From assembly GCA_016208765.1 (NCBI GenBank), contig JACQXK010000004.1, forward strand, positions 20,243 to 84,242: a stretch of 64,000 nucleotides of DNA, read 5' to 3'. This document shows, piece by piece, positions 6,048 to 61,058 of the stretch (position 1 is its first letter; every line of letters starts with the position of its first letter). A program made the translations under genes and the position numbers. Under the pieces are notes generated by a model. It saw only the letters and a program-made list of their open reading frames with translations, searched no databases and was not told where the DNA came from. The DNA is from Candidatus Omnitrophota bacterium. Lineage in GTDB: Bacteria > Omnitrophota > Gorgyraeia > Gygaellales > Profunditerraquicolaceae.

Positions 6048-6821
6048 TTATAGTTTCTTCAACAGATCATCTGCAACCTTGCGGCCGGATAACAACATCC
6101 CGCCAAAAATCGGGCCCATGCGCGGCCCGCCAAAAACAGCATTAGCGCACATACCGCAGGTGTATAAACCGGGAGCTACTTCCCTGGAATTTCTTACAAT
6201 TGTCTCTTCTCCTACCTCTGCCCACATGGAATTCTCTCCCATTACCTTGCCGGTTTTTGTATTTAACTTCAATCCGGATTTTCTTTCTGCAATACGCACT
6301 ACTTCTGCCGCATGGCCTGTGGCGTCAATAACCATTTTTGCGCGCATGGTGATAGGGTCAACATGAAGATTGGCAATTTCCACCGCCGTCCAGTTTAAAA
6401 CTAACCCTGCAATACGCCCTTTTCTAATCATCACATCTTCTGCGCTTAAAAGGTTAAAAATCTTAACCCCTTGCTTGATTGTTTTAGAGCAAATTGTAGA
6501 AACCGCCTCTACTGAATCTGCCAGATAATAGCCCTTTTCATACAAGCGGGTGCTAACATCAAACTCATTGAGGATTCGCCGGGCCTTTTCCTGCACAACA
6601 ATTTCATTAAACATAATCCCGCCGCCCCACATACCTCCTCCAACTGAAAGCTTGCGCTCAAAAATAACAACTCGCTTCCCTTTTTTTGCCAGATAATACG
6701 CGCAGCACATACCAGCCGGCCCTGCGCCTACAATAGCCACATCCACATCAAGCGCATCCAGAAGTTTTTTATTATAAGACTCAATTATTGCCCTTGAAAT
6801 TTTAATGTCATCTAATTGCAT
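6048..6821 (-). CDS. thi4: Thiazole synthase, Thi4 family
   Basis: [21 protein letters not shown]...[14 protein letters not shown]...ATGHAAEV...[15 protein letters not shown]. This is the classic Thi4 FAD/NAD-fold motif set. Confidence 0.85.
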
Positions 6822-6823
6822 GA

Positions 6824-7411
6824 TTAACCCTCCAGTTTTTTAATTGTAACTTTTTTTACGCCTTCCTTAACCATTCTCTTAATTGCATCTTCTGAATCAT
6901 TGGGTTTTAAGTTTACTCCTTTTATCGCATCCATCAGAATATTTACCTTAAAACCGTGCTTTAGCGCATCATGGGCAGTGAATTTAACACAATAATCTGT
7001 GGCAAGGCCTGCAATATAAATTTCTTTAACCTTAAAGAAATCCAACAACTTCTCTAAACTCATCCCCCGTTCATCTTCTGCCTGGAATGACGAATAACTG
7101 TCTTTCTTGGGATCAAGGCCTTTATACAAATAAATTGCTCCCTTTGGTAATTTCAGCTTCGGATGGAATGCTGCGCCCGGAGTATTCTGGACACAATGCA
7201 CAGGCCACACCCCGCCGAAATCCTTAAAATGTTTGCTTCTTAGAGGATGCCAATCACGGGTTGCGAAAACAAAGGATTCTTTTTTGGAGAAAAACTTCAG
7301 GTACCTGTTAACTACCGGAATGATTTTATCTGCCTCAGGAATACCCAAGGCCCCGCCGGGACAAAAATCATTCTGCACGTCCACAACTAACAACGCCTTT
7401 TTTGCTTTCAT
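6824..7411 (-). CDS. pncA: Nicotinamidase/pyrazinamidase (isochorismatase fold)
   Basis: [40 protein letters not shown] and GLATDYCV (catalytic Cys) align motif-for-motif with PncA. Confidence 0.8.
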
Positions 7412-7556
7412 AAAAAAACCCTATGCCTAAAAACATAGGGGAAACTTGTATCACCTCTCTTCCTACGCTGGCATTACCCAGATCAGGTTATTAGGGTAAT
7501 CTGCTTTACGCAGAACTCTCAGGCCGCTCTACGACCTCCCCTTACAATATTATTCT
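7412..7556 (-). promoter_or_regulatory. TPP riboswitch (THI element) with expression-platform hairpin abutting the pncA start
   Basis: Minus-strand read: GGGGAGGUCGUAGAGCGGCCUGAGAGUUCUGCGUAAAGCAGAUUACCCUAAUAACCUGAUCUGGGUAAUGCCAGCGUAGGAAGAGAGG. It carries the CUGAGA, ACCC and ACCUGAUCUGGnUAAUGCCAGCGUAGGAA hallmarks. It is followed by CCCUAUG-loop-CAUAGGG and U7 directly before the ATG. Confidence 0.9.
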
Positions 7557-13301: not shown

Positions 13302-13389
13302 CTTGATTTACTCCATTGCTTTCTCAATGAAATTATAGCAAAGAATACCTGAATAGCAATGATAAAGTCTGGATAGCCGTAGCCGGTTA

Positions 13390-13505
13390 GTTACTGGGCG
13401 TAAGTCATTCCCGCGTAAGCGGGAATCCAGCCACGGGAACGCCTGGTTGCCTCCCCGCGAAAGCGGGGATTTCGCGAGCATGACAATACCTATCCCCCGT
13501 TTACT
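13390..13505 (+). repeat. Structured GC-rich repeat family R2, copy A (three hairpins closed by GUCAU/AUGAC)
   Basis: GTCATTCCCGCGTAAGCGGGAATCCAGCCACGGGAACGCCTGGTTGCC is 46/48 identical to the reverse complement of 51790-51838. The third hairpin co-varies between copies (CCCCGCGAAAGCGGGG versus GCCTGCATTTGCGGGC). Confidence 0.75.
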
Positions 13506-13524
13506 GACCGATTACAATTAACCA

Positions 13525-20917: not shown

Positions 20918-21133
20918 TTATTCTTTTGCAATCGCAAATGTAATTAACGCTGCAAGAATAAGAAACGGCCCTGCGCAGGCCTTAATCATAAACCAGGTAT
21001 ACCCCCACCACATCCTGCCGATTAACAAATAGCCCCCAAGAATCAAAAGGACCAAGCCTAAAATAACTTTAAACATTCCTGAAACCCCTTTGCCACAGCA
21101 CTTCTTTTGCTCTTGCTTAATTTCTTCCGCCAT
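20918..21133 (-). CDS. Small membrane protein (hypothetical)
   Basis: The internal ATG at 21133 is preceded by AAGGAGG. It has two hydrophobic helices. The longer ORF to 21190 overlaps the upstream gene. Confidence 0.35.
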   Translation of the reverse strand: MAEEIKQEQKKCCGKGVSGMFKVILGLVLLILGGYLLIGRMWWGYTWFMIKACAGPFLILAALITFAIAKE

Positions 21134-35252: not shown

Positions 35253-36581
35253 TTACCCCAAGGCCGTGTATTGCTTGCCGTCGCCTAAAGGATTAAGCCA
35301 GCGCTTGATCTTAAGAGCAGATTTGGTTTCTTTTAAATCTATTTTTTCTTTCTTGTCCTGAGGAAAAACAACTTCAACCTTGGGAGAAAAAATATCATCT
35401 TCATTCTCTTCTCTTACTATCGCTATCCGCGAATCAGAAAGCTCAAGCAATGTGCCCACCGGCCAGACACCTATTATCCTGAAAAATTTGTCCAAAAGCT
35501 CCGGGTGAAAAAACGCCCCTTTTTCTTTCATCATAATTTCATAGATCATGTCCGGAGGATAATCATTTTTATAAGACCTTCTTTGAGAAAGGGCGTCATA
35601 AACATCACAGATACAAACGATCATAGAAGCAACATGCAATCGGTGGCTAAAAGCTAACTTTGGATACCCTGATAAATCATACCTTAAGTGATGTTCAAAA
35701 CATACCACCGCCGGCAGAATTCCAAGCGTACCTGCATACCTCAACATAATCTCTGTGCCGGCAAGGACATGGCTCCTGACATTTTGCCATTCCTCTTCGT
35801 TTAATACACCCGGTTTTCTGATAATTTTACGGGAAATGTAAATCTTTCCAATATCATGAAAAAGAGCAGCCGTGCCGATATCTATTGAATCTGCTTTTGA
35901 AAAACCAAATTTTACAGAAAAATACATTGAAAGCACTGCTGTATTTAACATGTGGGTAAAACTGCTTGTATCGTACCTTTTTACTGTGGCAAGATTTAAA
36001 AGTTCCTGGTATCGGCCAACAAGCCCTTCCATCACATCATTAATAGTATGACGCAGTAAAAGCGTATTAACCTCTTTTTGCTCAAGTATAGCCTCCAAGG
36101 GGCCGGACAATTTATCTAAAGTACCCCTGTAGTCGGCAAGGTTTAACCCCTTATCAACATCAGCGCCGGCCGCGGCTTTAATCTTTCCAACAATAATATT
36201 TTCCACACCTGAATTTTCCAGTAGCTCCTGCATCTGTGCCTTATTTTCGCCTTTAGGCATAAGCAAGCAATTGATAAATTTAACCAGCTCATCAGCTGCT
36301 ACCTGCCTGCGGATCTCTATTCTTTCAACACCCTGCTGGGCTAAAAATAAAATCATCTGTTTAAGAACCTTGCTCAATTCAAAAAATATTTCTTTCTGAA
36401 AGATCAATTCTTCGCCGACAATTCCCATAACAAGAGGATCATGTAACTTTAAGGCCTCCTGCAAACTGGCATAAGCCTTCTCAAGCGCCTTTTTAAACTG
36501 CGGGTGCCACTCCGAATAAAGCCGCGCTGTCTGCAAAACAGAAAACAAATCTTTAAATGAATTTTCAACTATTTCGTTCAT
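35253..36581 (-). CDS. HD-GYP domain protein (c-di-GMP phosphodiesterase class) with an N-terminal uncharacterised domain
   Basis: HD motif ALFHDIGK and HHLRYDLSGYP. Confidence 0.8.
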   Translation of the reverse strand: MNEIVENSFKDLFSVLQTARLYSEWHPQFKKALEKAYASLQEALKLHDPLVMGIVGEELIFQKEIFFELSKVLKQMILFLAQQGVERIEIRRQVAADELVKFINCLLMPKGENKAQMQELLENSGVENIIVGKIKAAAGADVDKGLNLADYRGTLDKLSGPLEAILEQKEVNTLLLRHTINDVMEGLVGRYQELLNLATVKRYDTSSFTHMLNTAVLSMYFSVKFGFSKADSIDIGTAALFHDIGKIYISRKIIRKPGVLNEEEWQNVRSHVLAGTEIMLRYAGTLGILPAVVCFEHHLRYDLSGYPKLAFSHRLHVASMIVCICDVYDALSQRRSYKNDYPPDMIYEIMMKEKGAFFHPELLDKFFRIIGVWPVGTLLELSDSRIAIVREENEDDIFSPKVEVVFPQDKKEKIDLKETKSALKIKRWLNPLGDGKQYTALG

Positions 36582-38499
36582 GTAAATTTTTTAAGGCCTC
36601 TTTTGCCTTCTTTCTTAATCCGCTATTCCAAAAAAACGGCCTCTTTGAAAGAATCTCTAAATATTTCTCCAGCCCGGCAAAATTCAATTTCTCTGCTATT
36701 GCCATATTTTCAAGAATAAGTTCATTCTTGGTGCCAAAGGGGCTGTTAATCAAAAGAATTTTATCTAACACAGTTTCTCTCTGGGAATCATTTCCGGATA
36801 AAACTGCTAACGCCTCTTTACGCAACGAAGCATTTTCAAGCTTTAACACCGAAAACAAAAAATCTCTATTTAAGGAAGAAACATCCTTGAGCGATTGCAG
36901 GACTTCTCTTTTTATTACATTATTGGGAAATGAAAAAATAAACCTCTTGATTTCAAAGGAAACGGAGGAATCAACATATTCAAGGCTGCTTAGGAACTTA
37001 TGCAAAAAGTCAAGATCAGTTTGCTTGCGGCCAAGCTGCTGAAAAACCAAGGATAAACTACCGGGAAACAATCCTAAAAGCAACTTTACCGAAAAATGGT
37101 TAACTTTCCCTTCTAAAAATATCTGATTTAAATAATATTCAATGTTAAAAGAGCTCTTCTCTATGCCTTTAACCAAGTATGCAAGATTTTCCGGCAAGGC
37201 CTCATCAAAAACCGCCTTCTCCGTAAAACTCGCAATTTTCCCGGCGATATCTTCAAAAGGTTTATTTAATCCGTTTTCCCGATTCTTTTTTTTGTGAACA
37301 AGCTTCAAGATAAGCCTCAAATGATCAAAGTTCTTTTCTGCGATCAGGCGGTCGCATTCCTCTGAAAGGTATTTTAAAGCCTGCGCCAATTTATCGTCGT
37401 TATCTTCCATACTAACGGTATTTAAAAGCACAAAAAAGAAATTTTCCTGCAAGGCCTTGCGGTCAAAAACAAAATCAGTGTCCTGCGCCTGTTGCCGGGA
37501 TAAAGATGAAAAAACATGCCGGTAGAATTCAGGCAAAAACACAGTTTCAGGATTATCAAAAAGCTCCCGGATTTTCTTTCTTATTTTCGGATTATCCTGC
37601 AGAATCTTTGCGCTTTTTGCTTTTTCTTCCAGGCTCATCGCAATGCCATTGTGCATTTTGACATCAACAAGCTGATAAAATACCTTGAAACTTAAAGAAT
37701 CAAATTTATCATTATTGACAATTTCTTCCCAAAGAAACCCGGAGAAATCTTCTTTACCTAAATACCCCAGGAGCTCTTTAAACTTGCCTAATTTATTTTC
37801 TTCAGAAATATCTTTATCACGGAGTATCAGCCTAAAAAGATCCTTGGTGCATTCAAGAAATTTGTCCTTGTCTTTATCTTTTAAATAAGAAAGAAAGTTG
37901 TAAACACTCTGCCTTAATTCTTCATCTTTATATAGATCCGAGATTTTAAAACGGGTGATAATAGCATTGAAGTTACCGGCAATTTCATCTATCTTGCTCC
38001 GGCTTTCTTGCTTAACCGCACTTCCAAATAAATAAGCCCAGATGTCTTTGGCTTGCTCTCCGGAGTCTTTTAAAAGCTCAGAATAATCTAATTCTTCAAT
38101 AACGATTGAACTGCCTGCAGGATTTTCTGACGGCAAACCGAGGCGCCCCTGTTTTAATGCTTCTTTTATGGGAAGAGATATTTTATTCAGAAAATCTATC
38201 AGCTGGTCTTGTGTCAGGCCGCGCCTAAACTCTACACTTTTAATCTTATGCAAATGCATTAATTGCGCCAGTTCCACATATAGAGGTGAATTTTGATAAG
38301 ATTTTACACCGATAAGAATAGACTTGGGCGTAATATTAATTTTTAAAACAGGAATTAACTGCAGCAGGTTATCTAATTGTAATTTAAAGGCTGCGGCGGA
38401 TTTAATAAAATAAGGATGGGTCTTGGGATAGGCCGAGGCGTTATTAATGACAATACGCAGGCCCTTAAAGAAATCTATCAGGGCTTGGTCTTTATCCAT
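36565..38499 (-). CDS. Large alpha-helical hypothetical protein whose N-terminus resembles the N-domain of the adjacent HD-GYP protein
   Basis: 644 aa with no known catalytic motifs. N-terminal ...AYPKTHPYFIK... compares with the HD-GYP N-terminal ...LYSEWHPQFKK... Overlaps the downstream gene by 17 bp. Confidence 0.45.
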   Translation of the reverse strand: MDKDQALIDFFKGLRIVINNASAYPKTHPYFIKSAAAFKLQLDNLLQLIPVLKINITPKSILIGVKSYQNSPLYVELAQLMHLHKIKSVEFRRGLTQDQLIDFLNKISLPIKEALKQGRLGLPSENPAGSSIVIEELDYSELLKDSGEQAKDIWAYLFGSAVKQESRSKIDEIAGNFNAIITRFKISDLYKDEELRQSVYNFLSYLKDKDKDKFLECTKDLFRLILRDKDISEENKLGKFKELLGYLGKEDFSGFLWEEIVNNDKFDSLSFKVFYQLVDVKMHNGIAMSLEEKAKSAKILQDNPKIRKKIRELFDNPETVFLPEFYRHVFSSLSRQQAQDTDFVFDRKALQENFFFVLLNTVSMEDNDDKLAQALKYLSEECDRLIAEKNFDHLRLILKLVHKKKNRENGLNKPFEDIAGKIASFTEKAVFDEALPENLAYLVKGIEKSSFNIEYYLNQIFLEGKVNHFSVKLLLGLFPGSLSLVFQQLGRKQTDLDFLHKFLSSLEYVDSSVSFEIKRFIFSFPNNVIKREVLQSLKDVSSLNRDFLFSVLKLENASLRKEALAVLSGNDSQRETVLDKILLINSPFGTKNELILENMAIAEKLNFAGLEKYLEILSKRPFFWNSGLRKKAKEALKNLHERNS

Positions 38500-38525: not shown

Positions 38526-38762
38526 TCATTTCATTTCGTTATTCTTAACAATCTGGATATTTATGCTCTTATTCTTCAGAAACTCAAATACCTTCTTCAG
38601 CTCTTCATCGCTGCCTTCAATGCCTAAGATCGCCCATCCGGAATAAGTGGAAAATGAAGCCTCAAGTATATTCAGGTTAATTTCAAATTGTTTACAAAGG
38701 CTGCAAATTACGGAATCATCTTTGAGTTGCCCGGGGAAAGTCAAACCAATAACCATTTGCAT
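38526..38762 (-). CDS. Stand-alone NIL-domain (MetN C-terminal-like) small protein
   Basis: MQMVIGLTFPGQLKDDSVICSLCKQFEINLNILEAS...GWAILGIEGSDEELKKVFEFLKNKSINIQIV fits the NIL-domain pattern. AAGGAG lies 9 nt upstream of the ATG at 38762. The longer track ORF reads through a structured element. Confidence 0.5.
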   Translation of the reverse strand: MQMVIGLTFPGQLKDDSVICSLCKQFEINLNILEASFSTYSGWAILGIEGSDEELKKVFEFLKNKSINIQIVKNNEMK

Positions 38763-38883
38763 ATTTTTATTCTCCTTTAAAAAATATTTTAGCGGATAAA
38801 CCAGCGCAGTCAAGCTATTTAACAAGAAATAATTTTTATTAATCCTGCTCGGTTTATGTTTCTTGGAACACTTTGAGTATTCG

Positions 38884-39040
38884 GGTGACAAGGCATATTT
38901 CTCGCAGCACCGCTTGATTTCTCCCTGCGTGGAAAATCTTCGCTCGGGCGAAAGCTCTTGCTCTCGCCAACTATGCAATAGCGGGCGAACCATGCCCGCA
39001 AGAGCTTTCTAACGTGCTGCTTAAAACATGCCTTGTCACC
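38884..39040 (-). repeat. Structured GC-rich element family R3, copy a (candidate ncRNA or MITE)
   Basis: Its reverse complement shares GCAGCACGTTAGAAAGCTCTTGCGGGCATGGTT, AGAGCAAGAGCTTTCGCCCGAGCG and GGTGCTGCGAGAA with 60462-60616. Nested stems GGTGACAAGGCAT/ATGCCTTGTCACC, GCAGCAC/GTGCTGC and GAAAGCTCTTGC/GCAAGAGCTTTC. Confidence 0.7.
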
Positions 39041-39052
39041 AAATTATCTAAA

Positions 39053-39136
39053 GCAACAAAAGTTTCTGTGAGCACACAATCAGAGATTTCTTGGCAACGG
39101 CAAAAAATCTCGCGTGCGAACAGAAACTTTTATTGC
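39053..39136 (-). repeat. Dispersed palindromic repeat family R1, copy 3 (interior inverted relative to copy 2)
   Basis: GCAACAAAAGTTTCTG...CAGAAACTTTTATTGC enclosing GAGATTTCTTGGCAACGGCAAAAAATCTC. The interior is the reverse complement of the copy-2 interior. Confidence 0.7.
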
Positions 39137-39248
39137 TGGATTGTTTTGTGCTGTCAGCAAAAATAGAGAAATATAAATTACCAAATTAAAAACCCAAGCT
39201 GCAAAAACAACTTGGGTTTTTAAGGTTGCATATATTAAACTAACGCGT

Positions 39249-42200
39249 TTAGATTGAATCAATAATTAGTGATACTTTCATTAAATCCTCATCACTTTCC
39301 ACGCTATTTGCTTCATCCAACTTGTAAGTCTTAACCACAGCTAAAGCCAAATCTTGAACGTGGCGCGACAACTCTTTTCTCTGAATACATGAGCTTGCCA
39401 CCATTGCAAACCTCTGGGAATTCGGCCTGATCCCTGCTTCAAGCATCTTGTTTATCTGACGCAGTTCATCATCAATATCCATATTCCTATCTGCCTGCGG
39501 CAACTGCAGGTTCAGCTTTGCAAAATTTCCCATAGGTTGGGCGATGATATTAATGGCACGAAAATCTATACCGCCTACACTGCTATTCTTTGCTTCTACC
39601 GCCGAAGAAGCAGTATCTCTAAGATAAGCCTGGAGAAAATCGCACAGCTCTGACATTGGTTCTGTAAAGGCACGAGCATCCGGATGTTTTCCTTCATTTT
39701 TAATATTGTATTTTATTTCCCGTATACAGGGAAAAAATTGAGTAGAGATTAACCAACGGAGTTTTGACTCCATATTAACTCCACCAAAATTAACTCCCCT
39801 GTCTTTTCCTAATTGAAATACAAGTGCACTCAATAAACCATCTTCTAAAAAGGAATCGAGATTATCGGGAAAATGCCGGCCAAATTGGATAGCGGCCTTT
39901 ATGAGAATAACTACATCGCGATTAGTAACTTGTTCATCTTGAGAGGGCATTTTAACAAGCCTGCTTAGCCATTGCTCAAAAATTCGTATGATACTGTCCC
40001 GGTACAACCAAGATTCTTTATTCATCATGTGCCTATCAAGAATCGTAGGCACAGCCTGAATCATCTCATCAGCAAATTCTCTACTTTGCTGCTGTGCAAA
40101 CTTATCAATTCCATCCTTAAACACTCCAGGTGTTTCATAATATTTTTTTACTCTTTGATAATATTTTTCAACTTCTCCGGGAGTAGGCGAACGGCCAAAA
40201 TCAACAAAAAACCTATGAACCAAAGGCACAAGATACAATTTCGCAAATTCAGCTCTTTGTTCCTGATTCCAATATTTTGTATCTGGATTATTAAGAGTTT
40301 GAACAAGTATTATGGACAGCTTTAATATACCATCAGGTGACTGGAAAGTTTTTTCATCGTCTACCTCCAATAACGAAGAGACTACATCCTCTCCCGCTTC
40401 CGCCGCCGAGCTGGCATATTGCTGCTCGTAAATTTGCTTAGACCGGGCAAAAACCACCATTAACCTTGCCAAATTCTTTATTTCTGTAGCATCCGGGACA
40501 AACATTGTAACTGATTCTGTGTTTACTTCGCTAAACCTGTCAGCATAAGCCATTGCATAAATTCCGTCTACTTCTGAAGGATACAAACCATGCAAATAAA
40601 CAGGGACATTGCCATCAGATTTAATCAAAATCTCAGTTTCCTTTACCTTATTCAGATCCTTTACCGAAGTCATTATTACCTCAAAAGACAAATCCACTCC
40701 GCCTGCAGTCAACTGCCGGCTCTTATGCTGTTCTCCGGGGCAAAAACCAAAACGGTCAAATCCTAAAAATGCTAAATATTTCTTGAAGATTTCTGTAAGG
40801 CTGTTCCTATCCTCATAAAGTACAACGTTAAAAGTTTTTCCTGAATTGGCCGCCTTCAGGCGTAAGGCTGCCAATTGTCTTGCAGTTTGTTCTTCAGTTT
40901 GGCTTAATCTTACTTGAGCGGAAGACTGTAAAATTAAATCTAATAAACGTTTCATTTGTTTCTCTTTATCTTCCATCTGGGAAAATTCATTTAGCGGAAC
41001 TCCCAGCGGTTCGCTTTGCCCCATTTGTTCAAGCTGCTTAAGAAACCTGTGTATATGCTCTAACCTAACCGTGCTCACATCCACAGGTGTTGACGGCTCT
41101 TTTAATAACCTTGTCAGATCGTTTAGAAGGCTACGCGTTGTATCTCCGGAAACAAAACCATCTCCATTACGTAAGCCATTGGCACGCAAAAGAGCTCCGT
41201 CAGCTACAAGCATTTCGTTTTCAACATATGTATGCTCTCTCTGCGCCTCATCTCTAACCGGAAGACCATTTACATCTTTATTTCCTTTTCTGTTAAACGC
41301 GTTAAATCCTCTTCCTTCACGCACCAATGCCTTGGCACCCTCAACATCAGGCTGGCGAAAAGGAGTTATATCATTAAAAATCTCATGCAATTTCTTTAAT
41401 GCCTCAAACTGCGCATCACCCTGTTTTGGGCCCTGCATAATTTTGACAATATTCGCTGGATTAGAAAGATCAACCTCCTGCAAAGACTTATCGGCTTTCT
41501 GTTTTTCCCTGAGTACCTCAGCAGTAGTCAACATGCCATATCTAACAGTAAGGTTTTCCACAAACTGGACGTACTTACCCAATTCTCTTTCAGAGATAGA
41601 TTTCATCTTGTATCTAATCACTAAATCATTCGGCCCTGCACCAACATCTATTGGCTCCTGGCCTTCAAGATCAATCACAAAATAAGCCTTTCTTCCAATA
41701 CCAGGAATGTTACTAAACGCCCGCTTTACATGCGCAGAGTCAAAATTGTATGTCTGCAAGCCCTGCGGCATGCCCATCTTTCTTCCCTTACCTGTACTCT
41801 CCGGTATAAGCTGCTCTAAAAGCTCAGTTGGCCGCGAAAAAACCAAACCATTGGGTGCAGTAATTACAAAATGATGAATATCTCTCCGGTAAAGCTCTTC
41901 GGCAAATTTTGCGCTCTCTGAGGTACCGGCTCTTTGCTCCTGGGCTTCTTCTCTGGCGCCTGCTAATATCTCTTCTGCGTCCATGCCTAAAAGCACAGCA
42001 TAAGTCAAAGAAGCAGGGCTTACTCCTTGAAACCTGCCTCCTAAATTATCCAACATCAAAATTGAAGCCACTTCATTTTCGTTACCGTCAAAAAGCTGCT
42101 TTAAGAAGCCTTTTCTGAATTGATCCAAACGGCTGCCTTTTTTCTGCTCTTGATCATATTTACCGGTAGTCATGATCATATTACTAAATACAGTTTTAAG

Positions 42201-44777
42201 GATACCACGTTCTTCTTCGGAAAGATTAAGCTCTGAAATATTTTTCTCTGCTAAAGGCTTTCCATCAAACATTTTATTTATCAGATTATTAGCAATTGTA
42301 ATTCCCTTTTCATCGCCATAATTAAATCTTGCCCAAATACGGATCATCATCCTTAAAACCATCTGAAAGTTAACCATGGTTTCATCGGTTTGGCCGGATT
42401 TTGAGCTAACTTTCCACAACAGTTTTGTCCGGGGATTTTTTCTTAAGGAAACTAACAGTTCCTCCTCCATAGCATTAAAATCTGTCCCCAATGAATCAGC
42501 CACTATCAGCCTTCTATTGCTGTGTTTGACGACATAACCTGCTTCAGGCAGGGCACAAGTAGTTTGGCCACCGATACCAATACCAACTATAATTACATCG
42601 CCTTTATAATTCTGGTAATCATCACCAAAATGCTTTTTGGCAAATTTATAAATAACATTAAGCGCATCTCGCATTGGCTGGCCAAAACGCGGCGCGCCCT
42701 TATAATGATTATCTTCTCCAAATGCCAGATAACCAAAACCCTCGGGATCAGATGTTAAACCTACCTGATATAATAAATTAGTAAGCGGCCTCACTGCTTC
42801 CACAGAACGCACGGCGGAGCTGGCGAGGAACTTCCTATGCCCTAATAGATCATCCTCTGGCCCGGAGAGATTCAATTTAGCGGATTTTCCCGCGGCTGTT
42901 TCCAGAGAACAACCAAGGTTTGTTATTAAACAATCCTTACTTACCATGGCAATGCCATTTTTCTCTGCCCAATCAAGCACCAGGCCACCAACACATGCTT
43001 TCTTAACTTTGGCCTGGTCCATAGAACCAGTGGAAGCAGGAGCCTCATAAGAACAAACAAAAGTAGGATCATTAGAAGATGCCCTAAACACGAATCTGCC
43101 GGCAAACTCTCCGCTCGTAGATTCAAAAACAATATCAGCAAATCTATATAGCCCTCCGTCTTCAGGATCATCCTGATAGGTATTAAACTCCTTAACCCTT
43201 AAGTCTCCGGCTGCTGTTTTATAAACTTTCCCTACTACAAATTCCTTACTCAAAGCTTTAATACTTGAATCTTTACCCAAGGCAATTATTGCCTGAGGCG
43301 GATTTTTAGTATCTTTGGAATCATATTTCCATCCTGTATTATTCCGCGGATCAAGCGATAACTTTGCCAAAAGATCAGGATGGAATGGCGGTTGAAACCT
43401 TGGTGATTGGACATAAGGAACGCTGTTCTTAACATAAACGGACAGGAAAGGATTCGCAGATTTTGGAGCATCTCCTTCGTAATTCTGCTGCTTTACCAAA
43501 ACAGAGAATAAAACCGCTATTGCCACGGGATTTTCAACTTCACCAGTAACATCAAGCCAGGAGTGGCCTGAACGCTCCCCATACACCGGGATTACCCAAC
43601 CCGCCTTAAGTTTCTCCTGCCTTTCCTTCTTTAAGAGAACATAGCCTGCGTCAGTTTGTAACGGAACTACGCCAGATCTGTTTGCGACATCATTAACCCC
43701 AAAGGTCCCTAACACGTCCCGGATCACACCAATCTTTTTTCCGGTTACTGCAGGGTCATAACCCAGATCTTTTATTAAATACGGTAACAGCACCCCAAGC
43801 ATATTATCCGGGGAGATAGAAACAAACCTGATACCAGGCATAGTTACCGGCCTATGTGGCACAATAATAGCGCCTCTGTCACCATCAAGGTCAAAGGCGA
43901 TCCCCATATCGGCATTATCGGCTTCAATGCTCTTTTTTAACTGCTCAAGGTTTTTTTCTATAGACGGGTCTGCGTTATGCTCACCTTTAATTTCCCGGAC
44001 ATCGCCGTTTATCAGGATCACTTGTGCGCCTAAATTCCTGAAGGTATCGGCAGCTAACTTACCGCTGGGAGTGTGCGAACCTTCAACCACTATCTTCATG
44101 CCTTTTAAAGGCCGAGTTTGACCAAGTTGACCTTCCCAACGGTCCAGAACATTAACAGGATTATCTGAATCCTGGATCTGCCTTGCTAAGTCAAATAAAG
44201 AACGTTTCGCAAACGCAGCCCTTCCTAACAGGATGTTAAATTTTACACAGTTTCTATCTACATTCGTTATAGAAAATGTCCCGCGCGTAGCCGAAAGCGG
44301 AAGAGACTGTCTCTTTTCGGTCATTTCCATAAGATTCTCAACTATTTGCTTTGATTCTTTCTTTATTTCTCTTGTGCTCATACTCTGCAAAGTGCCGCCT
44401 TTTTCAACAAGCATCGCTACTTTAAACCCAACTACAATTTCCTCAATAGGCCGGGAAACATGGCTTGCAGTAATAAATATACTCATCAAAGGTTTAATCT
44501 CCTGCACCGCCCAGGAATACGAGGTAACAGCATTAGGCCCGTCTTCAAAAGTGCTAATGACATTCAATCCCCTATCTCTTAAGGATTCTATTAAGGCGTC
44601 AATTATTCCGGGATCAACTTGCCTGGCGTCTTTGGCAACAACAACTGTACGGTTTTCTATACCGGCTGCTTTTGCTTTTCTTAATGCCATTTCCGACCAA
44701 GCCAACCCAAGCAAACCTACAAATTTAGGATCCAAAGGTTCTTTGCCGGTATACCTATAATCATAATCCCTAAACAT
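39249..44777 (-). CDS. 1842-aa multidomain protein: phosphohexomutase (PGM/PMM) + glucose-6-phosphate isomerase (PGI) + ~740-aa uncharacterised C-terminal region
   Basis: All four alpha-D-phosphohexomutase motifs occur in order: TASHVSRP (aa 103), DLDGDRGA (aa 296), GERSGH (aa 400) and RASSNDP (aa 565). PGI motifs follow: VGIGIGGQ (aa 731), SKSGQTDET (aa 792), LGGRFQGVSPASLT (aa 912) and PESTGKG (aa 992). Residues 1100-1842 show no recognisable motif. Single uninterrupted ORF. Confidence 0.8.
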   Translation of the reverse strand: MFRDYDYRYTGKEPLDPKFVGLLGLAWSEMALRKAKAAGIENRTVVVAKDARQVDPGIIDALIESLRDRGLNVISTFEDGPNAVTSYSWAVQEIKPLMSIFITASHVSRPIEEIVVGFKVAMLVEKGGTLQSMSTREIKKESKQIVENLMEMTEKRQSLPLSATRGTFSITNVDRNCVKFNILLGRAAFAKRSLFDLARQIQDSDNPVNVLDRWEGQLGQTRPLKGMKIVVEGSHTPSGKLAADTFRNLGAQVILINGDVREIKGEHNADPSIEKNLEQLKKSIEADNADMGIAFDLDGDRGAIIVPHRPVTMPGIRFVSISPDNMLGVLLPYLIKDLGYDPAVTGKKIGVIRDVLGTFGVNDVANRSGVVPLQTDAGYVLLKKERQEKLKAGWVIPVYGERSGHSWLDVTGEVENPVAIAVLFSVLVKQQNYEGDAPKSANPFLSVYVKNSVPYVQSPRFQPPFHPDLLAKLSLDPRNNTGWKYDSKDTKNPPQAIIALGKDSSIKALSKEFVVGKVYKTAAGDLRVKEFNTYQDDPEDGGLYRFADIVFESTSGEFAGRFVFRASSNDPTFVCSYEAPASTGSMDQAKVKKACVGGLVLDWAEKNGIAMVSKDCLITNLGCSLETAAGKSAKLNLSGPEDDLLGHRKFLASSAVRSVEAVRPLTNLLYQVGLTSDPEGFGYLAFGEDNHYKGAPRFGQPMRDALNVIYKFAKKHFGDDYQNYKGDVIIVGIGIGGQTTCALPEAGYVVKHSNRRLIVADSLGTDFNAMEEELLVSLRKNPRTKLLWKVSSKSGQTDETMVNFQMVLRMMIRIWARFNYGDEKGITIANNLINKMFDGKPLAEKNISELNLSEEERGILKTVFSNMIMTTGKYDQEQKKGSRLDQFRKGFLKQLFDGNENEVASILMLDNLGGRFQGVSPASLTYAVLLGMDAEEILAGAREEAQEQRAGTSESAKFAEELYRRDIHHFVITAPNGLVFSRPTELLEQLIPESTGKGRKMGMPQGLQTYNFDSAHVKRAFSNIPGIGRKAYFVIDLEGQEPIDVGAGPNDLVIRYKMKSISERELGKYVQFVENLTVRYGMLTTAEVLREKQKADKSLQEVDLSNPANIVKIMQGPKQGDAQFEALKKLHEIFNDITPFRQPDVEGAKALVREGRGFNAFNRKGNKDVNGLPVRDEAQREHTYVENEMLVADGALLRANGLRNGDGFVSGDTTRSLLNDLTRLLKEPSTPVDVSTVRLEHIHRFLKQLEQMGQSEPLGVPLNEFSQMEDKEKQMKRLLDLILQSSAQVRLSQTEEQTARQLAALRLKAANSGKTFNVVLYEDRNSLTEIFKKYLAFLGFDRFGFCPGEQHKSRQLTAGGVDLSFEVIMTSVKDLNKVKETEILIKSDGNVPVYLHGLYPSEVDGIYAMAYADRFSEVNTESVTMFVPDATEIKNLARLMVVFARSKQIYEQQYASSAAEAGEDVVSSLLEVDDEKTFQSPDGILKLSIILVQTLNNPDTKYWNQEQRAEFAKLYLVPLVHRFFVDFGRSPTPGEVEKYYQRVKKYYETPGVFKDGIDKFAQQQSREFADEMIQAVPTILDRHMMNKESWLYRDSIIRIFEQWLSRLVKMPSQDEQVTNRDVVILIKAAIQFGRHFPDNLDSFLEDGLLSALVFQLGKDRGVNFGGVNMESKLRWLISTQFFPCIREIKYNIKNEGKHPDARAFTEPMSELCDFLQAYLRDTASSAVEAKNSSVGGIDFRAINIIAQPMGNFAKLNLQLPQADRNMDIDDELRQINKMLEAGIRPNSQRFAMVASSCIQRKELSRHVQDLALAVVKTYKLDEANSVESDEDLMKVSLIIDSI

Positions 44778-59977: not shown

Positions 59978-60307
59978 CTACTTTTCTTTTCCTAAACTAG
60001 TTAAAACAGTAGCTGTCTTTTCTAATTTCTTACGTAACATTTCTGCTATTGGGCGCAAAACCCTGAATATCCCCTTATCTTCAATGGCATAATAAATAAC
60101 CGTACCCTGCTGCCTTGATTTCAATATCCCTGCTTCTCTTAGAGCCAATAAATGCCTGGAAAGGCTGGACTGGGGAATATTAAGGCCTTTGGCAATACCG
60201 CCTACTTTTTCTTCCTGTCTTTTAAGTAATTCTATAATTTGCAGCCGGAGAGGGTGAGCCAGAACTCTTAGAAAATCTGATTTTATTTTATATGCCAATT
60301 CTTCCAT
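59978..60307 (-). CDS. ArsR/SmtB-family HTH transcriptional regulator
   Basis: LAHPLRLQIIELLK...VGGIAKGLNIPQSSLSRHLLALREAGIL. Confidence 0.8.
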   Translation of the reverse strand: MEELAYKIKSDFLRVLAHPLRLQIIELLKRQEEKVGGIAKGLNIPQSSLSRHLLALREAGILKSRQQGTVIYYAIEDKGIFRVLRPIAEMLRKKLEKTATVLTSLGKEK

Positions 60308-60461
60308 TGTTAGTAAGCTGATAGCGAAGTCTAGACCTCCGCTACCGGTATTATTCCTTATTTCTCAATATTCGGATATATGGTAATTATACGAATTGTT
60401 TATAGTTTGTCAATATAATTTATACAATATTAAAAGCTTCATTACACTACATTGCATTAAC

Positions 60462-60616
60462 GGGTGGCTTGGCTTGATTCGAGCAGCACGTTAGAAAACT
60501 CTTGCGGGCATGGTTTTCCCGACTGAAAGTCGGGAAAGAGCACGAGTTTTCGCCCGAGTGCAGCCCCGACACGCCGGGGCGGGACAAACGGTGCTGCGAG
60601 AACAAGACAAGACAGG
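60462..60616 (+). repeat. Structured GC-rich element family R3, copy b
   Basis: GCAGCACGTTAGAAAACTCTTGCGGGCATGGTT-(hairpin TTCCCGACTGAAAGTCGGGAA)-AGAGCACGAGTTTTCGCCCGAGTG-(hairpin GCCCCGACACGCCGGGGC)-GGTGCTGCGAGAA. Shows G-C to A-T covariation relative to copy a. Confidence 0.7.
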
Positions 60617-60632
60617 ACCCATTACTTCATCA

Positions 60633-61058
60633 TCACTCAAGCCTGAGCTGGGCGCCTGCTTTAATCTGGTTCTTTTTGACAAAACCTGCGCTAACTTCTA
60701 AAACATACTTAGCTGGCTTGGCAGGAACAAGGCTTGGGCAAGAAGCCTGGCAAGGTTTTGCATCTTCTATTATATCAACAACTTTCTTATCTTCTGAAAT
60801 CCAAATTATATCTATAGGAATACGCATATTCCTCATCCAGAAACTATGCCTAAGCTCCTTTTCAAAAACAAAAAGCATACCTTCATTTTCTTTAAGTTCA
60901 TCCCTGAACATCAGGCCTTTTTGCCGTGTTTTATTTGTATCACAGACTTCAACCAAAACAGAGGCATTCCCTAAAGAAATTATTTTCTTTTTTTCTGCTG
61001 CTAAGCCCAAGGAAAAACAAACAAATGCCAAAATTAACAGCCACAAGATTATTCGCAT
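60633..61058 (-). CDS. DUF192-family secreted protein
   Basis: Signal peptide. GLMFRDELKENEGMLFVF...RIPIDIIWISEDKKVVDI pattern of DUF192 (COG1430). Confidence 0.7.
   Translation of the reverse strand: MRIILWLLILAFVCFSLGLAAEKKKIISLGNASVLVEVCDTNKTRQKGLMFRDELKENEGMLFVFEKELRHSFWMRNMRIPIDIIWISEDKKVVDIIEDAKPCQASCPSLVPAKPAKYVLEVSAGFVKKNQIKAGAQLRLE

Follow-up and report, generated by a model that had tools for sequence, protein, structure and literature searches.

A strand-specific three-way-junction element forms a family of dispersed repeats in Omnitrophota

In the Bacillus cereus group, the ~155-bp repeat bcr1 is mobile and transcribed, and its branched RNA structure is kept by compensatory changes; it is flanked by 5-bp direct repeats and consists of two independent stem-loops (Okstad 2004 and Klevan 2007, summarized in PMC3184786). 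REP/BIME sequences are simple palindromes of 20-40 nucleotides (nt) that carry a GTAG/CGTC-type tag, occur in high copy number and are associated with RAYT (PMC3733652, PMC3184786). Here we describe a GC-rich element that occurs in two copies, A and B, in a 64,000-nt stretch of DNA from Candidatus Omnitrophota bacterium (GenBank assembly GCA_016208765.1, contig JACQXK010000004.1, positions 20,243 to 84,242 of the forward strand), referred to as the window. An original prediction made from the sequence had interpreted the element as a three-way junction and as either a novel structured non-coding RNA (ncRNA) or a MITE, a miniature transposable element with inverted repeats. Both parts of this view found support: the element matches no family of Rfam 15, and its copies are dispersed and insertion-polymorphic. 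A and B are paralogous members of a previously undescribed, so far Omnitrophota-specific family of structured RNA type.

The uncultured phylum Omnitrophota is widespread; among its members are very small cells that may be predators or depend on a host, and to our knowledge almost nothing is known about their non-coding RNAs. A literature search for ncRNAs, riboswitches, structured RNAs or MITEs of Omnitrophota or Omnitrophica returned nothing relevant. Pattern scans combined with a covariance model identified 14 distinct copies of the element in six Omnitrophota genomes, whose G+C content spans 38% to about 70%, and the pair in the window is thus not a chance duplication. The number of copies per genome ranges from two to at least six.

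Fold and sense strand of the element

Copy A lies on the minus strand of the window (positions 38884-39040, from P0 to P0′) and copy B on the plus strand (60462-60620). As predicted, they share three near-identical blocks, which are identical except at positions given as R, M or Y. Comparison of the reverse complement of 38870-39060 with 60445-60635 gave 80% column identity, and in the family alignment the two copies share 72% identity. The 15-mer GCAGCACGTTAGAAA and the 14-mer CGGTGCTGCGAGAA each occur exactly twice in the window, at A and B only; even with two mismatches, 0.13 chance matches to the 14-mer are expected. Motif searches allowing mismatches and an unfiltered search with covariance model R2 likewise found only A and B in the 64-kb window, the next best score being 11.7 bits. 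Both copies form islands of 52-58% G+C, compared with about 40% in the window, in agreement with the earlier description.

Members of the family are about 160-200 nt long and have a common architecture. A closing helix (P0 and P1, about 25-30 bp) leads into the three-way junction. The first arm consists of helix P2, a conserved asymmetric internal loop (GGGCAUGG / GA) and the variable hairpin P3, the second of hairpin P4 with a conserved CGC...GGG apex, and the arms are linked by a conserved 11-nt junction strand (GCCCGAGYG). In copy A, all on the minus strand, the 5′ strand of P0 (GGUGACAAGGCAUGUUUU, 39023-39040) forms 18 bp with 38884-38901, including G-U pairs that exist on this strand only. 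P1 is formed by GCAGCACGUU (39011-39020) and 38904-38914, and P2 by GAAAGCUCUUGC (38998-39009) and 38950-38961. Above P2 lie the conserved internal loop GGGCAUGGU (CGGGC..GG, 38989-38997) and P3 (38964-38988); the junction strand J2/4, GCCCGAGCGAA (38939-38949), connects to P4 with its conserved C-(A/G)CGC-N-GGG apex (38916-38938). In copy B, on the plus strand, the 5′ strand of P0 (60462-60480) carries the GGGUGGC half of an internal-loop module described below and pairs with GACAGGACCC within 60600-60620. The 5′ strand of P1 (60483-60492) pairs with 60587-60597 and that of P2, GAAAACUCUUGC (60494-60505), with 60540-60551. The internal loop is again GGGCAUGGU (60506-60514), and P3 (60515-60537), J2/4 with the sequence GCCCGAGUGCA (60552-60562) and P4 (60563-60585) complete the fold. 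Two hairpins unrelated in sequence between A and B nevertheless pair in both copies, and a G-C pair within the 12-bp stem is exchanged for A-U; both observations had been part of the original prediction.

The alignment of the 14 copies showed strong covariation in support of the three-way junction. Standard pairs occupied 95.2% of the cells, in contrast to 36-51% (at most 51.3%) in a control in which the 3′ partners were slid by 1-3 columns. Of the 41 base pairs, 28 carry double-sided changes, and in 500 shuffles no value as high was reached for any of the five measures. This alignment was model-fitted and leans toward the structure; the unfitted result with nine sequences was similar, and RNAalifold applied to a plain, unfitted MAFFT alignment returned the three-way junction with compensatory changes in 23 of 43 predicted pairs. 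The strongest support of all helices is that of P2, where 10 of 11 pairs are changed on both sides. In P4, both sides are changed in seven of nine pairs, and P0 covaries fully among family members.

Furthermore, the fold has a clear sense strand. The paired cells of the 14 copies contain 25 G-U or U-G but only 3 A-C or C-A combinations, and the covariance model scored the sense strands with 94-140 bits and their complements with 11-19 bits. With model R2, copy A reached 124.4 bits on the minus and 10.7 bits on the plus strand, copy B 115.2 bits on the plus and 15.9 bits on the minus strand. The folding energy of copy A was -82.2 kcal/mol in the sense orientation (z -8.35 against dinucleotide shuffles) and -73.9 kcal/mol for the complement; the corresponding values for copy B were -71.6 (z -4.72) and -67.0 kcal/mol. 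This energy gap is due to G-U pairs. The G-U excess and the difference in bit score demonstrate that the three-way-junction fold is selected on one strand, and the palindromic, orientation-independent element that had been suggested can be discarded.

All 14 copies keep the following positions invariant or nearly so: in P1, ACGU, and in its 3′ strand A.CG; in the internal loop above P2, CGGGC..GG and, facing it, GAG; in the junction strand, (C)CCGAGYG; and at the P4 tip, CGC...GG. The three-way junction of ~130 nt contains about 30 invariant core positions. P0, P2, P3 and the stem of P4 vary freely, and in one copy the P4 loop has an insertion of 32 nt that forms a hairpin.

A pseudoknot between CGGGC and GCCCG had also been proposed. 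Both segments are present and conserved, but their pairing is incompatible with P2: GGGC follows directly on the 5′ strand of P2 and GCCC directly on its 3′ strand, so that, with linkers of zero length, a helix of 4-5 bp would need to reach across both ends of a 12-bp helix, and no pairing in cis can form beside P2. The segments never covary; one copy lacks CCC, and GCUUG in the copy at locus L020 would still pair by G-U. They may instead pair in an alternative conformer or between molecules. A coding or toxin open reading frame (ORF) was rejected as well. The AUG in GGGCAUGG opens unrelated frames in A and B and is replaced by CUC or AAG in four family members, and the element does not contain the conserved small ORF inside a 5′-3′ locked RNA that characterizes type I toxin mRNAs.

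Distribution, dispersal and shared modules

The search pattern, GTTAG N11 GGGCATGG ... CGCCCGAG, was derived from unpaired conserved positions. Omnitrophica WOR_2 GWA2_47_8 had matches on two contigs and Omnitrophota Betzabe_MAG073 on three (L004, L005 and L008). In metagenomes the pattern matched a high-G+C relative (L013) and a 295-kb contig (L014). L013 belongs to the Omnitrophota, as judged by an identity of about 80% between its Mrp protein and Omnitrophica proteins. A covariance model built from nine copies recovered diverged copies that had been missed by the pattern, giving three on each of the two roughly 10-kb GWA2_47_8 contigs, and a second model detected one further copy in the unrelated 1.19-Mb Omnitrophota contig L020 (96.6 bits). 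The pattern matches in L001, L006, L007 and L012 were dropped as chance matches after reading and covariance-model search. All homologues came from one sequence pattern, and the taxonomic breadth and copy numbers are lower bounds.

True members scored 94-140 bits. In 718 kb of viral DNA, comprising 80 loci with a match to a loose pattern, the best score was 20.6 bits; the strict pattern had no match in viral contigs and the loose pattern more than 120 chance matches. Blastn searches of phage and plasmid collections found no match. About 150 kb of other Omnitrophota loci contained the single copy in L020 and otherwise nothing above 15 bits. The E-values of the covariance model are rough, and the gap in bit score between members and controls is large.

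Searches against Rfam 15 assigned the element to no family. At the gathering threshold, neither copy in the window was hit, and at E≤10 copies A and B gave only junk-level snoRNA and miRNA matches outside or partly over the element, in line with the earlier statement that it resembled nothing that could be named, being neither a hammerhead nor a twister core and not obviously 6S. Nine homologous loci yielded only FMN and tRNA families at the gathering threshold, and the L011 region with its three copies yielded nothing at E≤1. The raiA motif, an example of an orphan structured bacterial ncRNA, was compared with the element only through Rfam. At the gathering threshold, the sole Rfam match in the window was an ordinary TPP riboswitch (7443-7552, minus strand, 68.1 bits), and the FMN match was an equally ordinary riboswitch on a Betzabe_MAG073 contig (L005:275-415, minus strand, 101.6 bits). 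Another GC-rich intergenic island in the window (13302-13524; 65% G+C over 13366-13513) forms a multi-branch fold with a long closing stem on the minus strand (-73.3 kcal/mol, z -2.6). It matched neither Rfam nor the covariance model of the element.

The copies behave as repeats. In Betzabe_MAG073, the three copies are 97-98% identical at three unrelated loci. The GWA2_47_8 copies fall into subfamilies: two G-type copies are 93% identical and three D-type copies 92-96%. Between subfamilies of the element, identity is only 46-65%. Copy B shares 72-76% with copies in other genomes and is thus closer to them than G-type is to D-type. Moreover, a back-to-back pair in GWA2_47_8, consisting of a D-type and a G-type copy on opposite strands 14-19 nt apart, was duplicated as a unit. 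Similarity between the duplicates stops exactly at the outer ends of both closing helices, and the elements are 92-96% identical, whereas the short spacer is far more diverged.

Filled and empty sites were found between mrp and the DUF971 gene in a conserved gltB-mrp operon. In L026/L013 (Mrp identity to L013 100%), the gap of 363 nt is filled by the element and a second structured element. In contrast, the gap measures 1 nt in L029 (Mrp identity 90%) and 0-4 nt in L021 and L024 (77%). In L028 (93%) it holds an unrelated 77-nt hairpin (L028:2145-2221), and in L022 (78%) a different element (L022:11078-11355). The presence of other GC-rich hairpin repeats at this position in relatives identifies it as an insertion hotspot. 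Spurious small ORFs are called over such elements, with 92 amino acids (aa) in L022 and 55 aa in L020. Beside the L020 copy, a short derivative and a truncated 5′ part were detected.

At the locus of copy A, a comparison was possible through a 644-aa protein encoded nearby (36565-38499, minus strand). In four other Omnitrophota with homologues of this protein, the element is not at the orthologous site; L020 carries its copy at an unrelated site. In L150, whose homologue is 73% identical, the contig ends ~130 nt upstream of the NIL-domain gene, where copy A would be expected, and in a comparison of L150:1-140 with window positions 38756-38915 the first 20 nt resembled the 3′ strand of a helix. 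This break may mean positional conservation or a repeat-induced assembly break. The 644-aa protein itself has no Pfam domain and is conserved in at least 76 Omnitrophota clusters; its gene is always followed by an HD-domain (HD_5) gene, and the two look like a phylum-specific pair. Taken together, copies of the element have been gained and lost between lineages, and the element is a dispersed, insertion-polymorphic repeat.

Parts of the element are shared with other sequences. The closing helices of copy B and of the copies in L004, L005, L008, L014 and L020 contain an asymmetric internal-loop module, 5′-GGGU-G(G/A)-C ... G-(A/G)CAGG-ACCC-3′, in which G/A on the 5′ side covaries with A/G on the 3′ side. 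In copy B it is formed by 60462-60468 and 60611-60620 and has the form GGGUG(G/A)C ... G(A/G)CAGGACCC. The helix extends outside the module, and these flanks covary between copies. The module was not present in copy A or in the GWA2_47_8 copies. It recurs as the closing module of five elements with interiors unrelated to the three-way junction (L022:14054-14181, L022:11210-11335, L026:11288-11442, L026:14969-15066 and L020:20887-20962). A kink-turn was considered for this module and rejected, as it lacks tandem G-A/A-G pairs.

In addition, an outer inverted repeat, motif M (GAATCTGGCGGTTTTTC), lies 10-20 nt beyond the helix of the Betzabe_MAG073 copies (L004:113-137 and 327-349, with equivalents in L005 and L008) and of the short L020 element (L020:20859-20875 and 20976-20991). 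In L014 it is found only upstream and in the opposite orientation (L014:5684-5700). Motif M does not qualify as a sigma-54 promoter, the GG-GC spacing being 8-9 nt rather than 10 and not constant. To judge from their sequences, these common modules suggest a modular set of intergenic elements and a factor that recognizes the helix module.

Gene context and explanations of the family

No neighbouring gene is conserved among the copies. Genes of the window are nearly all on the minus strand. The ORFs next to the two copies are as described before: a NIL-domain ORF starting at 38763 for copy A, and for copy B an ArsR-family ORF starting at 60307; a DUF192 ORF ends at 60633. Copy A is therefore sense and copy B antisense to its neighbours, in agreement with the opposite orientations that had been noticed. 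The GWA2_47_8 copies are flanked by genes for NadA, QueG, a DAO oxidoreductase, an HTH-cupin protein and PF05635 proteins, other copies by genes for folate enzymes (MetF/FolD), RF2, Mrp, LpxB and a cyclic-nucleotide-binding protein. Seven copies (B, L004, L005, L008, L013, L009:6855 and L020) converge on the 3′ end of the downstream gene, and 6 of the 14 point the same way as the next gene. In at least 8 of the 14, the gene on the 5′ side is divergent, so that read-through cannot produce the sense strand.

In about 9 of the 14 copies, a -10-like hexamer lies no more than 12 nt from where the closing helix begins. The promoter-like site CTCACA-18-GATAAT (39043-39072, minus strand) ends 2 nt before copy A; the hexamer TACATT (60448-60453, plus strand) precedes copy B by 8 nt, with a second weak candidate at 60399-60428, and all three are consensus matches only. 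The NIL gene has a separate and better promoter-like site between copy A and the gene. The context thus favours independent transcription of the element, as far as can be judged from sequence. No transposase, integrase, reverse transcriptase, TnpB/IscB or rsr gene was found near any copy in the gene lists of the loci examined.

Further upstream features of copy A are an imperfect hairpin of ~80 nt (39054-39135), which directly precedes it in the minus sense, and a terminator-like hairpin with U/A runs on both sides (39186-39216) just after an ORF of 1842 aa (39249-44777, minus strand). Recognizable domains of the encoded protein, phosphoglucomutase domains I and II, are confined to the N-terminus; Pfam gave no match for the other ~1500 residues. 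Two PF05635 genes (23S rRNA intervening-sequence protein / bAvd-like) are located at L011:2674-3102 (minus strand) and 6486-6947 (plus strand). They share a 9.4-kb contig with three copies of the element and are not adjacent to them, and no such gene lies beside A, B or the L009 copies.

The explanation we prefer, giving it an even chance, views the element as a self-contained cassette of a small-RNA gene, which spreads in the form of a dispersed repeat and whose fold acts at the RNA level. Each copy would be transcribed from its own strand, independently of its neighbours, with the -10-like box just upstream of the closing helix. The closing helix would insulate the fold and would probably set or process the RNA ends; at 25-30 bp it would be a substrate of RNase III. 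A trans factor, most likely a protein, would bind to a surface formed by the invariant nucleotides of the junction and loop. The cassette would multiply and relocate as a non-autonomous dispersed repeat, and copy number and position would therefore differ between lineages. Transcription from an own promoter, end formation at the helix, a protein partner and the mode of spread are steps that we infer. An interior that is more conserved than the ends, and elements that are more conserved than the spacer in the duplicated pair, favour a function as RNA.

Several observations count against this explanation. Compensatory changes between mobile copies can reflect selection on a master copy, including selection on a single-stranded DNA fold, and compensatory change alone cannot prove that each copy works as RNA. 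Gene conversion could mimic recent proliferation as well as constraint and could produce the contrast between elements and spacer in the duplicated pair, and conservation at the positions used in the search pattern is partly ascertained. With boundaries defined by paralogue comparison, no target-site duplication was seen at the unit ends; no autonomous parent element was found, nor a transposase at any locus examined. The promoter boxes, which match the consensus weakly and lie in AT-rich DNA, are missing from the high-G+C L013 copy, and no canonical terminator was found after A or B or after most other copies.

The strand-specific covarying fold, the junction nucleotides that stay invariant across 38-70% G+C and the promoter-like boxes upstream also speak for an ordinary, non-mobile chromosomal small-RNA gene family, with trans-acting RNAs in housekeeping or regulatory roles, that was duplicated by normal recombination and whose positions differ through turnover and rearrangement. 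The lack of a nearby transposase and of target-site duplications fits such a family, and the L150 contig break where copy A would lie hints at positional conservation. Against it stand copies that are nearly identical although their loci are unrelated, as many as three in 10 kb, units that stop precisely where the helix ends, and filled versus empty sites inside a conserved operon. The same holds for truncated derivatives, for flanking inverted repeats common to other elements and for the absence of the element from most sampled Omnitrophota loci. We consider this alternative unlikely.

A second alternative places the selected structure in DNA: a MITE or REP-like repeat, mobilized as single-stranded DNA, would serve transposase recognition or act as a cruciform or terminator and would make no RNA of its own. 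Transposase recognition predicts conserved ends, and the opposite was found, the interior junction being more conserved than the terminal repeat and the P0 sequences being wholly different between subfamilies. A 130-nt junction with ~30 invariant positions over a wide G+C range is atypical of a MITE or REP, no target-site duplication is present, and both elements of the duplicated pair are conserved relative to the spacer. The alternative does account for the long terminal inverted repeat P0, for the outer repeat M of some lineages, for a helix module common to elements of unrelated interior, for intergenic sites mostly just past gene 3′ ends and for insertion polymorphism; strand asymmetry, too, would be expected of a single-stranded DNA intermediate. 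On balance it appears improbable.

More speculatively, the core may represent a functional RNA of a new class with its own activity, be it a self-processing ribozyme or a ribonucleoprotein's RNA subunit, carried by a mobile modular cassette. Its modules may be the outer inverted repeat, a helix 'handle' (GGGUGRC / GRCAGGACCC) and a cargo fold, and the invariant GGGC and GCCC segments may join RNA copies into dimers or larger assemblies, since they cannot pair in cis. We regard this as a long shot. A narrower version, in which the catalytic core of a new self-cleaving or self-processing ribozyme is carried by a mobile element, draws on the invariant unpaired nucleotides of the junction core amid freely covarying stems, on long stems that could bring the ends together and on multiple, context-free copies on both strands, comparable to scattered hammerhead or twister-sister motifs. 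The core of ~130 nt is larger than known small self-cleavers, though, bears no sequence mark of a cleavage site and matches no known Rfam ribozyme family even at E≤10, which leaves a ribozyme very improbable.

Finally, a riboswitch or cis-regulatory leader of the downstream gene, suggested by the aptamer-sized fold, by the position of copy A 120 nt upstream of the NIL-domain ORF on the same strand and by the six co-directional copies, can practically be dismissed: copy B and six or more others are convergent with the gene that follows, the genes in that position have no relation to one another (NIL, NadA, DAO oxidoreductase, HTH-cupin, cyclic-nucleotide-binding protein), the NIL gene has its own promoter-like site downstream of copy A, neither copy is surrounded by a terminator-like or Shine-Dalgarno-sequestering platform, and a closing helix of 18-28 bp is unlike a switching P1. 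The original prediction had argued against a classical riboswitch as well, and the absence of a conserved gene association and the convergence of about half of the copies on the downstream gene uphold it.

The element combines two properties that are rarely paired, the behaviour of a dispersed, insertion-polymorphic repeat and an interior three-dimensional RNA core, rather than ends, as its most conserved part. Should the RNA prove functional, the element would exemplify a small-RNA gene spreading in the manner of a mobile element; a fold that serves transposition would point to a novel mobilization mechanism in Omnitrophota. The large core with its very strong covariation is a good candidate for structural and biochemical work, and the covariance model could be used to annotate islands that are now miscalled as spurious ORFs.

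Relation to described elements and RNAs

Integron attC sites (RYYYAAC ... GTTRRRY) have different ends from the element, which terminates in GGTGAC/GTCACC or GGGTGGC/CAGGACCC, and its copies are scattered in both orientations, unlike one-orientation cassette arrays. For transposon guide RNAs (omega RNA of TnpB/IscB, bridge RNA of IS110), a cognate gene would be expected nearby; none lies beside any of the 14 copies, and with the 5′ end paired to the 3′ end no guide segment remains free.

With 6S and bacterial Y RNAs the element has in common a length of 160-200 nt, ends paired in a long helix and, in some hosts, one to few copies; the closing-helix internal loop of copy B resembles in kind a protein-binding site. 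The Rfam models of 6S and Y RNA/YrlA did not match copies A and B on either strand at E≤10. In contrast to 6S, a rod with a large open central bubble, the junction is closed by the covarying P2, and one genome has at least six copies. As for YrlA, which has a tRNA-like module and is encoded near rsr, a TROVE/rsr gene was absent from the gene lists of all loci examined.

Orphan structured ncRNAs discovered in GC-rich intergenic regions (PMC8632094, PMC6429828) are likewise GC-rich islands in AT-rich genomes with strong covariation and probably independent transcription units. However, those RNAs are usually single-copy with conserved synteny, whereas the element is multi-copy, divided into subfamilies and insertion-polymorphic.

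MITE- and REP-type repeats (Correia/nemis, ERIC, RUP/BOX, REP/BIME, REPIN) resemble the element in being short, non-coding, multi-copy and intergenic, in having terminal inverted repeats in stable hairpins, often at gene 3′ ends (background in PMC3184786), and in forming families with common ends and different interiors. The element has terminal inverted repeats in every copy (P0, 18-20 bp), near-identical copies at unrelated loci and presence/absence polymorphism, the mrp-DUF971 site being filled in L026 and empty in L029, L021 and L024. It lacks the flanking target-site duplication of a MITE, and neither a transposase nor a RAYT was identified at the loci examined. Here, moreover, the interior with its strand-specific covarying fold is most conserved and the terminal helix is not conserved across subfamilies. 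A simple REP/BIME palindrome is excluded by the branched fold of 160-200 nt.

The best analogy for the behaviour of the element is bcr1. Like bcr1, an interspersed intergenic repeat of ~155 bp, it does not keep its position between related strains. It differs in having no flanking direct repeats and in placing a three-way junction with ~30 invariant positions inside a long closing helix; it also occurs in another phylum, has no sequence similarity to bcr1 and was seen in fewer copies. In kind, bcr1 is nonetheless the closest precedent for the Omnitrophota element.

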